Both the position numbers and the translations under genes were made by a program. 64,000 bases of DNA, taken from assembly GCA_030295235.1 (NCBI GenBank), contig AP026136.1:1178001-1242000 (forward strand), in the 5' to 3' direction. The stretch comes from Fistulifera solaris (lineage: Eukaryota). Under the pieces are notes generated by a model, which saw only the letters and a list, made by a program, of their open reading frames with translations, made no database searches and had not been told where the DNA came from. Below, one piece after another: positions 34,342 through 40,876 of this stretch. Position 1 is the first letter of the stretch. Each line of letters starts with the position of its first letter.

Positions 34342-36087
34342 ATGATATTTTTTTCACTTCTACTCCTCTCATTAAGCTTTCAGGATGTCTTCACTTTTAC
34401 TGCTTTTAGTAGAAAGGGAGTACTTCCAACTCTGCGATCGCAAGTAGATGATCACACAACAACGACAAAGACGACTACGAAAATAAACGAAAATGAAGGC
34501 GGTCGTTACGACAAATTGCTTAAAGAACTCAATTTAGACCTTCCTGCACTCGCCAGACTTCCAAAGAAGCACACAATTACCCCCTTTGATGTCTTTTGCA
34601 ACCGCGAATTGAAATTAGAGGGCATTCAGGCGATCGGATTCGACATGGATTACACGCTAGCACAATACAACGAAACAACATTTGCTGAACTCGCTTTTGA
34701 CGGTGCAAAGCGAAAGCTCGTCGAAAGTCTCGGTTATCCCGAAGAAGTGTTAGATTTCACGTACGATCCGGCACATTGGGTGCGTGGGTTGATCATTGAT
34801 ACACAGCGCGGTAACTTTCTCAAAATCGATCGTCACAAGTACGTGCGAGTTGCACGCCACGGCTTCGAGGTCATTTCCAGTACAACACGAAAGCATCTGT
34901 ACTCGCGGCAATTCAACAAGGTCATGAGTTTTACCGAAAAACAGTTTGTGAATATGGATACCCTGTTTCAATTCGTCGATGCGCACCTCTTCGCTAGTCT
35001 GATTGAGCTGAAAGACAAGGGCGATTACGAGGAACTGGATTACAAAACATACGAAGAAATCTACCGCCAAGTAAGAGAATGTGTCGATTTATGCCATCGC
35101 GATGGAGTCATCAAAGATCAAGTCCATTTGAATCCAGAGCCGTACGTCATTTTCGACAAGGGGATGGTCCCTATGTTACGGCGGTTCCGCCAAGAAGGAA
35201 TTAAGCTGTTTTTGCTGACAAACTCCTTGTGGGAATATACTTCAACCGTAATGAACTATCTTTATCATGGAGAGCGTGTCCCGGACGAACGTCAGAAGGA
35301 TAACGAGTGGATGGAACTATTTGATTTGGTCATTACGGGTGCGTGCAAGCCGGCGTATATGGTTGACTCGCACCTCAATCTATTTCGTGTCGATCCTTCG
35401 ACTGGTACATTGAGAAACACCGACGGTGTGTACGAGATTGAAGCGCTTGGTCCAAATGGGGCAACAAAGTTTCTACAGAAGGGTAAAACGTTCCAGGGTG
35501 GCAATTGGTTGCACTTGCAAGCTATGTTAGAAATTGAAGCCGGAGAAGAGATTTTATACGTTGGGGATCACTTGTATTCCGATGTACTCCGCAGCAAGCG
35601 AACTTTGGGATGGCGCTCGGTCTTCATCATGCCAGAGCTCGAAGACGAAATGAAAACATTTGCGGCGAATGCACCCTTGGCGAGGCAGATCATTGAATTG
35701 CGCAAGCTTCGTGAGGAACTTGGAGTATTGGGCGAAGTCCTGCGTCGTCAAGCAGACAACCCACAGAAGGAGCAAGAATTGAATCATTTGAATGATCAAG
35801 ACGACCTTTTAAAGGAAAAACTGATCGAGATGACGAGCCGCTGGCACGCCGCATTCCATCCTATTTGGGGTGCTATGTTTCATGCGGGATACCAAGATTC
35901 ACGATTTGCTTTTTACGTACAGAACTATGCCTGTGTGTACACAAGTCGCGCAAGCAACTTGGGTCTATGGTCGAAGCAGCGTTCCTTCCGGACGTCTATG
36001 GAGATGTTGTCGCACGATCGCCTTTTGTTCGCTACAGATCATACAGACTTTGCTGAAGTTGATCCCTGGACACACATTGCAGAATAA
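34342..36087 (+). CDS. HAD-superfamily subfamily IG 5'-nucleotidase, likely plastid-targeted
   Basis: Motifs GFDMDYTLAQY, FLLTNS and YVGDHLYSDV; N-terminal signal + transit-like peptide. Confidence 0.93.
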   Translation: MIFFSLLLLSLSFQDVFTFTAFSRKGVLPTLRSQVDDHTTTTKTTTKINENEGGRYDKLLKELNLDLPALARLPKKHTITPFDVFCNRELKLEGIQAIGFDMDYTLAQYNETTFAELAFDGAKRKLVESLGYPEEVLDFTYDPAHWVRGLIIDTQRGNFLKIDRHKYVRVARHGFEVISSTTRKHLYSRQFNKVMSFTEKQFVNMDTLFQFVDAHLFASLIELKDKGDYEELDYKTYEEIYRQVRECVDLCHRDGVIKDQVHLNPEPYVIFDKGMVPMLRRFRQEGIKLFLLTNSLWEYTSTVMNYLYHGERVPDERQKDNEWMELFDLVITGACKPAYMVDSHLNLFRVDPSTGTLRNTDGVYEIEALGPNGATKFLQKGKTFQGGNWLHLQAMLEIEAGEEILYVGDHLYSDVLRSKRTLGWRSVFIMPELEDEMKTFAANAPLARQIIELRKLREELGVLGEVLRRQADNPQKEQELNHLNDQDDLLKEKLIEMTSRWHAAFHPIWGAMFHAGYQDSRFAFYVQNYACVYTSRASNLGLWSKQRSFRTSMEMLSHDRLLFATDHTDFAEVDPWTHIAE

Positions 36088-37390
36088 ACTGCATAACTCT
36101 GAAGTCACCCTATAAACCGTCACTTTGCAGTATTATCATTTCTTCCCATTGAGTTATAACGGGACCATTTAGTGGTTTCTTTCGAAATGGTTATTATACC
36201 GCCGGTACTCCGCACCCCAATTTTGTTGAATAAACAATGTAGCTAGTCGATTAACCCGGAGGGACGATCATTGCTGATATGTGAACACCTTTGTGTGAGA
36301 CCCAGGGATAAAGAAAGAACCAAGTTTCAACACCGGAGTCCATTCGTGATGTATAATAACATCATCCCGCACTGTCGATAAGTGTATGCATTTTGAGCAT
36401 ACGTGATAGTCAACAATGATAGTTCTCAACTACATTACCGATGCACAGCTCGCTCTGATTGCTTGGATCGTTCAAACCTAATTAAAAACTATGGTCCGAA
36501 ATGTAAGTCCATTTTTGCCAAGACTGGAAAATCAGTCAATGGTCACGAGCAATAGCGAAGATATTGTACACCAATTATCGTGTTACTGAGACATATCTCT
36601 GTGTACCTTAATAAAAACCTTTGAACTGCTGTAATGGATCACTATTGGCTTCGCGCTTGATGCATGGCTCACTGCGATGGATGTCAGATCGTCCTAGATA
36701 GTTCACTTAGATTTACTAAGTGGGCCACTGGATTTTCAGTCATGAGTCATTAACCGTTCGCGAACACGGCACTTGGCACTTGGCAAGTGATTTGATTTCT
36801 TCTGTGATTTCCTCTTGGCAGCACGAAGAAGAATAATGACTCCTCGTTCTCTCTGTTCTTTATGACCATACTTTGATAGTTTCTGTAGATGACGTTGTAT
36901 GACTAACTCTAGAGAGAAGAGTCAAGAGTCAACCGTCACCCCTACAATTGGTTTTCTATACCGGTGCGATTTGCGATAATGGCAACATTTTAGGCGTCGT
37001 ATTTTACATTTAGGCAGTCTAAAGTCCGAAAGTTGTGTGGTTTTCGACTTGCGGTTTCCGTTTCTGGCGCTTGTATTCGGCTGAGTGCCGGTTGCGCTTC
37101 TCTCTTATGTATAGTGAAGGCAATTTTTGTCGTTCGTCATCGAACATCGGCTGGCGCGCCACTCCCTCCCTCCACTCCTTCCACGCCACCAAAATAGAGC
37201 AACAACCACCTCCATCCGCCACAGCAATCTTGAAATTTTTATCACCTCAATCGTCACAACGAAACGACCCAAATACTTTCCAGAGAGCGAGTGCCTAATT
37301 GCCTCCTTTCAGTTCTTTTCTTCTTTCTTCCCTTCTCGCTGTTCAGGTCTTCTTCCCTAGCAGCGCAGTATTAGTGAAGGAGCATTGTGA

Positions 37391-37549
37391 ATGCTTGTAA
37401 GTAGCGCGCAAATGCATTTTCTCGAGTTGATGATAATCCGTCAACGGCTCGCTCACCTTTGTGTTCTCCATTAGCCCGTACCAATTGTGGTTTTCTTCGT
37501 TCCTTTCCTCTTGGCAGTTCCCGGACCTGCCAAGGCTTACCCTAGCTAG
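37391..37549 (+). promoter_or_regulatory. Spliced upstream ORF (26 aa, MLPVPIVVFFVPFLLAVPGPAKAYPS*) in the AdoMetDC leader
   Basis: ATG CTT (37391-37396), then an intron GTAAGT...CTCAC...TTAG (37397-37474), then exon 37475-37549 open to CCT AGC TAG, 15 nt before the main ATG. Confidence 0.72.
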
Positions 37550-37564
37550 CAGCGCGTAATTAAG

Positions 37565-38881
37565 ATGGCTTTTACCGAAGAAACGCACTCGACCTCTTCG
37601 AGTGATAACGAAGTCCCAGCGACTGTGGGTGGCACTGCAACTCATTTTCATCCTGCTGTTCCGGAAGATGACAACAATTCGGGTCAAGAACGTGATTACA
37701 CGGGCATGTTTGAAGGCCCGGAAAAGACTCTCGAAGTTGTCTTTCGTCGCGTCAGTGATGAATACACGGATGCGAGTACGGGTGATTTGACTCCGATGCA
37801 GACGCCTCCTAACACCAAGCTAGGTCTTCGCAACTTGACGCGAGAGCAACTCGATCGCATCTGTGCTCGAGCTCGTTGCACGATCCTTTCTTGCATTTCC
37901 AATCAGTATTTGGATGCCTATGTCTTGAGTGAGTCGTCGCTCTTTGTGTATCCCTATATGTTGGTCCTCAAGACGTGCGGAACAACGACTTTGTTGCGAT
38001 GCATCGCCACTCTCATTGACTTGGGACGCACGTTGGGACTGGAGATTGATTGGGTTGGTTACAGTCGCAAGAACTTCAATTTTCCTGGAGATCAGTCCTT
38101 TCCTCATCAGTCCTTTCATCAGGAGTTGGACTATCTCTACTCGCATCGCAATCTCTGCGAACGCTTGGACGGGTCTGGCTACACGCTAGGACCTGTTACA
38201 GGAGATCATTGGTTTGTCTTTGTGGCAGACCAGACGCTTCGCTCGAAGGCGCTGGACTGCGACACTGACCGCGTGTTGAACATCATGATGTTTGATATCG
38301 ATGAACAGGTTGCAGAGCTCTTTTACTACAACCGTTACCAAGAGTCTGATGATGAGCCCATTGCTGAGAATGATATGAAACGCATTGCTGCCGCGCAGAC
38401 GAAGGCTGCGGGTATTGACAGTCTTTGCCCAGGTGCACTTATCGACAGTGCGGCCTTTGAACCTTGCGGATACTCGATGAACGCTGTTCTTTTCCGTTCC
38501 TACAGCACGATGCATATCACCCCTGAGGCTGGATCGTCTTACGCGTCTTTTGAAACGAACCAAAAGGTCAGTTCTTACAAGAGTCTCATCAGTAATGTGA
38601 TTCGCACGTTCCGCCCGAAGCGTTTTGTAATGACGCTCATGGCGGATGAAGGTGGATTGCAGCAGATCACAGAGAATCCTTTGACCGATAACGCTTCGGC
38701 AGCAAAGATTGTGGTGCCCTTTGAGAAGAGCGGTATGAAGTGCAGCTACAAGCGTGCGAGTACGGCGTCGATTAAGGTCGAGGAAGACTGTTGCTGCTTG
38801 ATGGGAAATTGGGTTCTTGAGGAGCCTTCCAAGCAATCCTCTTCGGCGACTCAGCGAGCTCGTGGTATTTCGATTTCGTGA
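37565..38881 (+). CDS. AMD1: S-adenosylmethionine decarboxylase proenzyme (eukaryotic class)
   Basis: FEGPEKTLEV, autocleavage site YVLSE|SSLFV, LKTCGTT, FEPCGYSMN and TMHITPEAGSSYASFETN. Confidence 0.97.
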   Translation: MAFTEETHSTSSSDNEVPATVGGTATHFHPAVPEDDNNSGQERDYTGMFEGPEKTLEVVFRRVSDEYTDASTGDLTPMQTPPNTKLGLRNLTREQLDRICARARCTILSCISNQYLDAYVLSESSLFVYPYMLVLKTCGTTTLLRCIATLIDLGRTLGLEIDWVGYSRKNFNFPGDQSFPHQSFHQELDYLYSHRNLCERLDGSGYTLGPVTGDHWFVFVADQTLRSKALDCDTDRVLNIMMFDIDEQVAELFYYNRYQESDDEPIAENDMKRIAAAQTKAAGIDSLCPGALIDSAAFEPCGYSMNAVLFRSYSTMHITPEAGSSYASFETNQKVSSYKSLISNVIRTFRPKRFVMTLMADEGGLQQITENPLTDNASAAKIVVPFEKSGMKCSYKRASTASIKVEEDCCCLMGNWVLEEPSKQSSSATQRARGISIS

Positions 38882-39299
38882 AAGGAAATATGCTTGTCAA
38901 CTTAATGCGAGATAATGAGAAACACGTCCGGGGTTGAGTTTTTGCATTCTCGAGAAACTTAACATAGTAAGAAAATTGTGTCATGTGACTCGTGTCGGAC
39001 TATGGGTTGTGGTTTGTTTCTTTCATTTGTTGTATAACTTTGCTATCTGGTAGTGCGACCAATCGCCGCCTAGTCCGAAAGTCTTCTCCTGCATTCGGTT
39101 TGGCGAATGCGCCACACAGTTTGCAGTGCGAACGGAGTGTAGAAACTGACTGACACCAGTCGTGCATCGTGCATCACTATCACATAAACGTTCTGTCTGC
39201 ACGCGGGTTCGCAAAAAATGCGAACTTGTCAAGAAAATAGACGTTATTCTCCACGAAAAAGTTGTGCATTGTTCATAAAACAGGAAAAGAAGACAAAAA

Positions 39300-40876
39300 A
39301 TGATCCGCTTACTAATTTTAATATTCCTTCTGCCAACTATTACAAGTGCAGGAAACCATCCTAGAACCTGTGCAGCCCAACTTGATACGTACCGGACGTG
39401 CCTCGCCGCGAAATGCCAATCATTGCTCCCCATTGTGTGCCGGCGTCCACGTGGTTCTCAGCCCTCAAGTTTTAGCAACGATGACGGTGGCTGGTCAAAC
39501 CGTGGCCTGTGACGCTATGAAGCTGATGAGCTGTTCGTATCAAAGCTGGTGCTGCGAGAATCGAGAGGGACAGAAGACAGCTTGCGTTACAGAGGAACAA
39601 TCGTATTGGCAGTGCATAGAACAAGAAGCTGGATGTGGCGCCATTGATTGCGAAGCAGTGCTGGAACCCTCGGAGCCTGAAGAACCCGAGGAGATGGAGC
39701 CGCCAGTCATTATTCCACCGGATACAGATACTGGAGGGGACGATGAAGAGGAGGCGGAACAACCTCGTCCTTCTAACGATACTCCCTCGAACCTGTGCTG
39801 TCGAACTCAAAACGTATCAGAAATGCGTCGTCTCCAACCCCACCAAGTGCCTCGCAGCGTGCACAAACGTCGATGTCATTCTGAACCCAACCCTTTTGGC
39901 AACTATGGAGAATCCTACTCGGGCATGTTATGCATTGAATCTGAAAAGTTGCAAATTCCAGGGATGGTGTTGCAAGAACAATGAAGGTGTTGCCATGGCC
40001 TGTGAAAATGAACAAAACGCATACTGGCAGTGCATACAACAAGAAGTTGGCTGTGGCTCATTCAATTCGCGACACTGCGTTGAAGCCTGGCACAATTTCA
40101 GAAGTTGCAACCTCGACGAGCGTCACTGCAAGAGCCACCAAACAGCCAAGAACATGCCCTACACAGCTACAAGCATACCAGCAGTGCGTCTTTGCAAATC
40201 CCAAATATTGTTATCCTTCGTGTGCGAAGGTGGACGTGATTATCAATCCGAGCGCTTGTTAGCTCAAATGCAAAGCCCGACGAGAGCCTGCACCGCCATG
40301 AAAACCATGAGCTGCGGCTACCAACTATCAGCTTGCTGCAAGAACTATAGAGGCGTGGAAGTAGCCTGTGGCTCAAAAACGTGCTTACTGGCGCTGTATT
40401 GAACAAAAGGCCGGCTGTGGTGCTATTGATTGCAAGAATCTGAAACTGCCTCGTATTAGCACGAGCTCGACGCCGATGGCGAAAATGATTGAGAAGACGA
40501 AGCTGAGAAAGAAGTCTGCCCACATTTCGCCAAGAAGAGGATTGCAGAACCGAACTTCAAACTATGCAGAAATGCCACATGGCCAAAAATTGCAGTCGGG
40601 ACTGTGGCGAGACGATGGTGAAAGATAACTCCTATGAACCAATCCTGAATCTTTGCTGGATGCAAGGTTGCTGCGAAAGATGCGGAACCGAGCAAACGGG
40701 CTACCGTCAATGTCTTGAGCGTCAAACAGAATGCTCTCTTGATTGCAGGATGAATCTGGACCAGCTCGAAGTAAGCGAAGAATACTGAAGCGGCTGGCGA
40801 TTCTGCTCCTCTTTTGGAACGGAGCTTCCAGGGAGCTTTCGCTATGTGCTTGGCTGCGTTTGTAGTGTTTCAGTGA
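39300..40876 (+). pseudogene. Secreted protein with four 12-Cys modules and hydrophobic C-terminus; multiply frameshifted (pseudogene or assembly errors)
   Basis: Signal peptide MIRLLILIFLLPTITSA. Modules start at PRTCAAQLDTY, PRTCAVELKTY, PRTCPTQLQAY and DCRTELQTM, spread over all three frames. The tail is GAFAMCLAAFVVFQ*. Confidence 0.7.

Follow-up and report, generated by a model that had tools for sequence, protein, structure and literature searches.

S-Adenosylmethionine decarboxylase (AdoMetDC) commits S-adenosylmethionine to polyamine synthesis, and decarboxylated S-adenosylmethionine (dcSAM) is the aminopropyl source of the higher polyamines (PMC6356823). The known systems closest to the one analyzed here are other upstream open reading frames (uORFs). 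The small uORF of plant AdoMetDC, with 48 to 55 codons and a 1-nt overlap with a tiny uORF of 2 to 3 codons, ends in Pro-Ser and is reported to repress in a sequence-dependent, polyamine-responsive manner (PMC2811004), and the peptides of the plant and mammalian AdoMetDC uORFs are both described as causing polyamine-responsive ribosome arrest, which in the plant case takes place at the stop codon of the uORF (PMC5587730). The mammalian AMD1 version, MAGDIS, is a hexapeptide situated 14 nt from the cap; it lacks a penultimate proline and is regarded as having an independent origin (PMC2811004). At the yeast HOL1 uORF, which reads MLLLPS-stop, termination is eIF5A-dependent and is inhibited by high polyamines (PMC10855120). 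Further, Ivanov, Atkins and Michael (NAR 2010) reported that AdoMetDC leaders of diatoms carry uORFs with a penultimate proline, a residue described as constant in that uORF, with vertebrates and the sea squirt excepted (PMC2811004). Here we analyze the uORF preceding the AdoMetDC gene in a 64,000-nt stretch of the genome of the diatom Fistulifera solaris (GCA_030295235.1, contig AP026136.1, positions 1,178,001 to 1,242,000 of the forward strand), which we call the window and whose own numbering is used throughout. Since diatom AdoMetDC uORFs have been reported, this uORF belongs to a known kind; it is almost certainly real, spliced and conserved, and its anatomy suggests a regulatory element centered on translation termination.

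The AdoMetDC gene and the uORF in its leader

The open reading frame (ORF) that follows the uORF encodes 438 aa and is AdoMetDC, as an earlier sequence-only reading of the window had it (Pfam PF01536, SAM_decarbox, E 2.4e-93, residues 48-369). The best non-self match of the protein has 75% identity, and the named best relatives of the enzyme are all diatoms (Amphora, Epithemia, Nitzschia, Seminavis, Trieres, and Minutocellus). Read directly from the sequence, the first exon of the uORF consists of ATG (37391-37393) and CTT (37394-37396) and is followed by the intron donor GTAAGT (37397-37402), the putative branch point CTCAC (37452-37456), and the acceptor TAG (37472-37474). The second exon, 37475-37546, reads PVPIVVFFVPFLLAVPGPAKAYPS and is closed by the stop codon TAG at 37547-37549, from which a 15-nt spacer leads to the main ATG at 37565. 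The spliced uORF thus has 26 codons and ends in Tyr-Pro-Ser before the UAG; the unspliced reading from the same ATG gives a 27-codon ORF closed by the acceptor TAG. Every coordinate given in the sequence-only reading agrees with this direct reading, as does its remark that the uORF is invisible to a six-frame track, from which the intron after codon 2 hides it. The 281 nt before the upstream ATG (uATG), 37110-37390, contain no ATG at all, against a mean of 3.0 in shuffled sequence (the probability of none being 0.037), and the 1,020 nt farther upstream of 37110 contain 22. Likewise, a scan of 37475-37564 found none, so that neither of these two segments offers another ATG for a plant-style overlapping tiny uORF. 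The features of the locus are as follows.

37110-37390, plus strand: probable 5' leader, free of ATG; its last 52 nt (37339-37390) lie on a spliced RNA contig
37391-37396, plus strand: uORF exon 1, Met-Leu, with a weak start context (T at -3, C at +4), from the sequence and the family context
37397-37474, plus strand: leader intron of 78 nt, GTAAGT...TTAG, phase 0 after codon 2 of the uORF, from the junction in run X1
37475-37546, plus strand: uORF exon 2, 24 codons, the conserved part of the peptide (profile E 2.2e-9; rebuilt profile E 1.9e-9)
37547-37549, plus strand: uORF stop codon TAG, by direct reading
37550-37564, plus strand: spacer of 15 nt, beginning with CAGCGC and holding the conserved post-stop context, from the family comparison
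37565-38881, plus strand: AdoMetDC proenzyme gene, 438 aa, intronless; main ATG with A at -3 and G at +4
37357-37456, minus strand: 100-nt segment skipped in runs X2 and X4, CT..AC on the plus strand and GT..AG on the minus strand, probably an antisense intron

Splicing was examined in Logan contigs of four sequencing runs (X1 to X4) from one 2015 study, which are strand-blind and were only guessed to be of RNA; these runs contain 67-76% of the sampled words, and their contigs were compared with 37000-38100. Three further runs (X5 to X7), with shares of 0.05-0.06, were left out, and parts of the region lacking contig cover in X1, X2, and X4 did not count as evidence on transcript ends. A 97-nt contig of X1 (depth 62) aligns with 37339-37396 over 58 letters and with 37475-37513 over 39. 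Its junction, 37396/37475, omits 78 nt with GT..AG ends and is exactly the intron that the sequence-only reading had predicted and had proposed to verify by reads across this joint. As the contig covers 37339-37396, its RNA includes the uATG together with no fewer than 52 nt of preceding sequence. The alternative acceptor named in the sequence-only reading, the AG at 37516-37517, was rejected: it was seen in none of the four runs, and the frame that it would produce is not the conserved one. A second allele visible in the runs differs within exon 2 at a single position (37525 A>T), and the change is synonymous (GGA to GGT).

A different joint is found in two other runs. A 786-nt contig of X2 (depth 124) and an 891-nt contig of X4 (depth 80) join 37355 to 37456, skipping 100 nt, with the exact cut ambiguous over 3 nt. 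None of the four possible placements on the plus strand (CC..CA, CT..AC, TA..CC, and AG..CT) is a sense splice signal; read on the minus strand, the skipped segment is a GT..AG intron with donor AAAG/GTGAGC and acceptor CTAG/G. The skip occurs on both alleles, with second-allele letters in X2 and the window's letters in X4, and because these two runs carry different alleles, it does not represent a deletion allele. Hence, the skipped segment is probably the intron of an antisense transcript that spans the leader and the start of AdoMetDC. The CTCAC that had been read as a branch point of the leader intron is also the reverse complement of GTGAG, the minus-strand donor of the 100-nt skip. Two contigs leave the sequence of the window altogether, one of X1 (495 nt, depth 26) at 37513 and one of X2 at 37301; the 29-30 letters of their loose ends have no match in the 64-kb window with up to 3 mismatches allowed.

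In the window, the uORF and the AdoMetDC ORF share a frame, with the TAG alone intervening (37547-37567), and readthrough of this stop would give AdoMetDC a hydrophobic N-terminal extension. As a conserved feature, such readthrough was rejected, for the distance between the two ORFs varies modulo 3 across the family described below.

Conservation and anatomy of the uORF family in diatoms

We aligned 26 diatom AdoMetDC proteins and took 80 related loci from metagenome contigs. Listing the uORFs upstream of the presumed starts of these loci revealed a recurring ORF of 25-31 codons, with a hydrophobic core (roughly IVFVVPILLAVP) followed by xAKx, [YF]PS, and the stop codon. A hidden Markov model (HMM) was seeded with 15 intact uORFs of other loci, the window being excluded, and was run against 11,049 six-frame stop-to-stop pieces of at least 12 aa (423,664 aa) from the 80 loci and from positions 35565-39564 of the window. 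The exon-2 frame of the window was recovered with 36.3 bits and an E value of 2.2e-9. With the model rebuilt in a second round, the window scored E 1.9e-9, and 37 of the 80 loci matched along with it at E <= 0.057. All 38 of these matches precede the AdoMetDC start and share its strand; the best match in any other place is on a minus strand, with E 2.0. A third round was left out of the counts, as it added nothing safe and brought an off-target minus-strand match at E 0.16. Across the last 22 codons, nonsynonymous divergence (pN, 0.35) is below synonymous divergence (pS, 0.68), a rough ratio of about 0.51 over 528 non-independent pairs; this difference is compatible with selection on the peptide. 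On these comparative grounds, the uORF is not a chance ORF, and its peptide and Pro-Ser-stop end are conserved among diatoms; the sequence-only reading had proposed to align diatom leaders for both.

The counts that follow refer to 38 sequences (37 loci and the window), and those of nucleotide conservation refer to the 33 distinct sequences among them. The peptide ends in Pro-Ser in 27 sequences, in another residue followed by Ser in 10, and in Tyr-Gln in 1. The stop codon is TGA in 28 and TAG in 10, never TAA, and the base after it is C in 38/38. The next base is A in 28/33 distinct sequences, giving the consensus stop-C-A-N-C-C-C-Y-T-A, and nucleotide conservation extends about 9 nt beyond the stop before it fades. 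The terminal serine is encoded by AGC in the window and by TCC or TCT in the other 32 of the 33 distinct sequences; the differing codon indicates that the amino acid itself is kept. In the 32 sequences with an assignable start, the uORF is 25-31 codons long, with T at -3 of its ATG in 26, C in 4, G in 2, and A in none, and with C at +4 in 31, irrespective of the second amino acid. The main ATG, by comparison, has A at -3 in 31 of the 38. The distance from the uORF stop to the main ATG ranges from 15 to 388 nt without a frame preference, the window having the shortest. The weak context of the uATG, the UGA or UAG followed by C, and the 9 nt of post-stop conservation fit what would be expected of a termination-centered regulatory element. 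The CAN-CCC that follows the stop is similar to the stop-CAR-YYA context, which promotes readthrough in plant viruses. Family peptides also show a small-x-small motif and an aromatic residue after the hydrophobic core (e.g., SAKS-F-PS), an end that resembles diatom signal peptides, where an aromatic residue follows the cleavage site; this likeness is probably a coincidence.

An intron after codon 2 is predicted at 11 other loci, representing 10 distinct sequences (L001, L002/L003, L004, L007, L013, L026, L036, L054, L063, and L064). The conserved part of the uORF contains no in-frame ATG in most of them, L001 and L007 being the exceptions. In each case, an upstream ATG-NNN-GT[AG] donor and an AG acceptor after a pyrimidine tract would join Met-x to the conserved peptide, the predicted introns measuring 87-184 nt. 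Among all these junctions, that of the window is the one confirmed by RNA. In longer contigs of another clade, the uORF is uninterrupted (L024, L037, L040, L055, and L076), which implies that the intron was lost or gained within diatoms.

A quick, midpoint-rooted tree was used to gauge the spread of the family, not the order of events. Members occur in the clade of named pennates (Amphora, Epithemia, Seminavis, and Nitzschia), where the window adjoins Epithemia, and in the clade of Trieres and Minutocellus, although a large part of the latter clade has no detectable member. By this comparison, the family is wide but not universal in diatoms. Outside it, two loci (L077, 127-228, and L078, 54-155) have a 33-codon uORF that ends in [ED]-Pro-Ser in the context CCT TCC TGA CA, and among named organisms their AdoMetDC is closest to that of brown algae, Tribonema, and Phaeothamnion (about 58-65% identity). 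These two uORFs have no match to the diatom HMM at E < 10, their kinship being a matter of the shared ending and of reading by eye. A member of the family from a non-diatom ochrophyte is thus possible.

Proposed mechanism, its rivals and its reach

In mammalian cells, UGA is described as the weakest stop codon and C at +4 as the poorest context; A at +5 weakens UAG signals further, and positions +4 to +9 lie within the mRNA channel of the terminating ribosome (PMC5829715). Together with the features of the family, this suggests the following course of events. The conserved weak context of the uATG would let some scanning ribosomes bypass it and translate AdoMetDC. The gap of 15 nt between the uORF stop and the main AUG makes poor reinitiation the expectation, so that leaky scanning would be the main route to the enzyme. 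Ribosomes that do translate the uORF would reach a poor stop signal (UGA or UAG, then C-A) with the full hydrophobic peptide of 25-31 residues still in the exit tunnel and Pro-Ser at the peptidyl-transferase center. By analogy with the plant AdoMetDC small uORF and with yeast HOL1, release of the peptide would be slow, and slower at high polyamines; the stalled ribosome would then obstruct scanning, and AdoMetDC output and dcSAM supply would drop. We propose, with somewhat better than an even chance of being right on all points, that the uORF is such a cis-acting element, one whose nascent peptide stalls termination, represses AdoMetDC, and, as we infer, responds to polyamines. Repression in cis is probable, and the response to polyamines, taken by analogy from the known systems, may equally well exist or not. 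A termination-centered regulatory function is well supported by the comparison, and polyamine sensing is plausible. The interpretation given in the sequence-only reading, of a uORF that stalls terminating ribosomes at high polyamine levels and sets dcSAM supply, thus has partial support.

Several observations weigh against this proposal. The sense junction appears in one of the four runs only; the other junction appears in two, where the 100-nt skip would remove the uAUG, and the remaining run, X3 (52 million letters, in which two alleles can be seen), reads straight through the intron. The acceptors at the other loci were picked to be in frame, so that preservation of the frame there is not an independent test. 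The Pro-Ser end is variable, with 10 of the 38 sequences having another residue before Ser, and the window itself departs from the family in its AGC codon for the terminal serine (TCC or TCT elsewhere) and in the CGC of its post-stop context (CCC in the family). The pN/pS ratio of 0.51 is moderate, and synonymous sites are close to saturation (pS 0.68). The data on termination contexts are mammalian, not diatom, and no experiments on a diatom AdoMetDC uORF, whether on translation, stalling, or polyamines, were found in the literature searched. Finally, the HMM has no match at 43 of the 80 loci. By a hand tally, 18 of these have less than 150 nt upstream or an unclear start, and 9 (L005, L006, L010, L017, L018, L019, L030, L077, and L078) have a look-alike uORF by eye. 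The other 16 are without an evident member, among them L047 with 2,967 nt and L072 with 768 nt upstream. Such absence despite long upstream DNA implies that the element is dispensable in some diatoms, and it seems to have been lost in a part of them (L047, L072, and their tree neighbors in the Trieres/Minutocellus clade).

These points have to be set against what other explanations would require. The uORF might be a constitutive damper that, once translated, cuts AdoMetDC translation by a fixed amount through ribosome capture and poor reinitiation, with no sensing of polyamines. It is established that a uORF ending 15 nt before the main AUG should lower downstream initiation, and the literature searched yielded no diatom experiments on a polyamine response. 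A damper of this kind needs neither a conserved peptide nor a Pro-Ser or Ser end, a poor stop context, or a weak start, all of which the family has, and in plants and mammals AdoMetDC is reported to be controlled by uORFs that sense polyamines (PMC2811004, PMC5587730); we consider a simple damper rather unlikely. Regulation could also lie in the inclusion or exclusion of the uAUG, if the 100-nt skip of 37357-37456 belonged to the sense mRNA and produced a uORF-free leader. The skip is the only form retained in two of the four runs, at depths of 124 and 80 and on both alleles, and the skipped leader would be free of ATG in 37475-37564 and, by eye, in 37457-37474. Yet all four placements of the cut are non-canonical on the plus strand, CT..AC being a well-formed GT..AG intron of the minus strand, and strand-blind contigs may merge sense and antisense RNAs, which leaves such an isoform switch improbable.

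Two further explanations place the function outside the act of translating the peptide. The nucleotides around the stop (CCU UCC UGA CAN CCC YUA) might form a binding site or a structure to which the open frame is secondary, as the conservation, at the nucleotide level, of the third positions of the last two codons and of the 9 nt past the stop would suggest. An element of RNA alone would hardly explain a frame that is open to the same end point in 38/38, conserved residues encoded by varied codons (the Ser AGC of the window versus TCC/TCT elsewhere), a pN below pS, or the amino-acid-level conservation of the hydrophobic core farther upstream. A scan of 36000-39500 against Rfam (E <= 1) also returned nothing, and the post-stop conservation fits the mRNA channel of the terminating ribosome (PMC5829715), so that we hold this account to be quite improbable. 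Least credible, and indeed very improbable, is a trans-acting micropeptide, whereby the hydrophobic product of 26 residues acts elsewhere, such as in a membrane, and its linkage to AdoMetDC reflects mere co-expression. The hydrophobic core, with small-x-small and an aromatic residue after it, is reminiscent of diatom signal peptides; all the same, the members always lie immediately upstream of AdoMetDC, the hydrophobic run has about 12-15 residues with prolines inside, and the conservation of a weak start and a poor stop favors a role for translation of the uORF itself over one for the product.

More speculatively, the termination stall proposed above may be part of an ochrophyte-wide sensor that couples polyamine status to dcSAM supply, a doubtful extension that we offer tentatively. 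In this extended form, the sensing part would comprise the complete chain of 25-31 residues, its Pro-Ser end (mostly CCU UCC), and a worst-case stop, UGA or UAG followed by C-A-N-C-C-C in the mRNA channel. The weak uAUG would set the gain, possibly via queuing of ribosomes behind the stall as in AZIN1. The conserved intron after codon 2 would provide a second level of regulation, determining if an mRNA carries the sensor in the first place, and the spliced RNA that seems to run antisense through the leader may provide one more. If true, the sensor would gate the aminopropyl donor for the long-chain polyamines of diatom silica formation, and the look-alike uORF of L077 and L078 would place the origin of the element before the diatoms. 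The biosynthetic route to these polyamines in diatoms is described as still unclear in PMC6356823, where their role in silica formation comes up only in the titles of cited references.

A conserved and easily mutated cis element before AdoMetDC would offer a handle on polyamine flux in diatoms that is testable in transformable model species. For the study of translation, the family represents a natural alignment of a predicted Pro-Ser-stop stalling peptide in which start and post-stop contexts co-vary, and it reveals which parts of such a sensor are retained by selection. For annotation, it exemplifies a putative regulatory ORF that is missed by six-frame or ATG-to-stop scans because an intron follows its second codon.

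Around the locus, the plus strand has an ORF of 581 aa at 34342-36087, ahead of the AdoMetDC leader. Downstream of the gene, overlapping ORFs on the plus strand at 39300-40402 contain repeated Cys-rich modules (e.g., ...SC.YQ.WCC.N.EG...AC..E...YWQCI.QE.GCG), the first of these modules being preceded by a hydrophobic N-terminus.

Comparison with known systems

The sequence-only reading had cited the plant Pro-Ser uORF and the eIF5A-dependent HOL1 uORF as precedents, and both are found in print in this form (PMC2811004, PMC10855120). It had been unable to tell whether the diatom uORF was already described. On this point, diatom AdoMetDC uORFs with a penultimate proline have been in print since 2010 (PMC2811004), so that the existence of the element is already known, and the details of its anatomy may be new. 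The main text of that paper gives the diatom uORFs one sentence, with no word there of a codon-2 intron, uAUG and stop contexts, post-stop conservation, a peptide consensus, or the spread of the element; its Supplementary Figs S1 and S2 may show more, such as this uORF, its species, or the intron. In the literature searched, there was no account of the codon-2 intron, the contexts of start and stop, the conservation past the stop, the patchy occurrence of the family, or the possible non-diatom ochrophyte member.

Among uORFs of other genes, HOL1 of Saccharomyces cerevisiae and the upstream conserved coding region of AZIN1 share with the window a Pro-Ser-stop in the mRNA of a polyamine-pathway gene; AZIN1, where polyamines are reported to act via eIF5A on termination or elongation, also has a weak start codon in common with it (PMC10855120, PMC2811004). 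These two belong to other genes and lineages and differ in length, HOL1 being a transporter with a uORF of 6 codons and AZIN1 an antizyme inhibitor with a non-AUG start, and neither has a sequence relationship to the uORF of the window. Mammalian MAGDIS, like the uORF of the window, precedes AdoMetDC, and it is described as stalling ribosomes polyamine-dependently just short of termination (PMC2811004). It differs in length and sequence, and in the RNA of the window 52 nt or more precede the uATG, as against the position close to the cap in AMD1. The plant small uORF has the same enzyme downstream and the same Pro-Ser end; its 48-55 codons contrast with the 26 of the window and the 25-31 of the family, and its tiny uORF partner has no counterpart in the leader of the window, which lacks a second uATG. 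The diatom uORFs reported in 2010 are, as far as the main text describes them, like that of the window in position, in lineage, and in the penultimate proline (PMC2811004).

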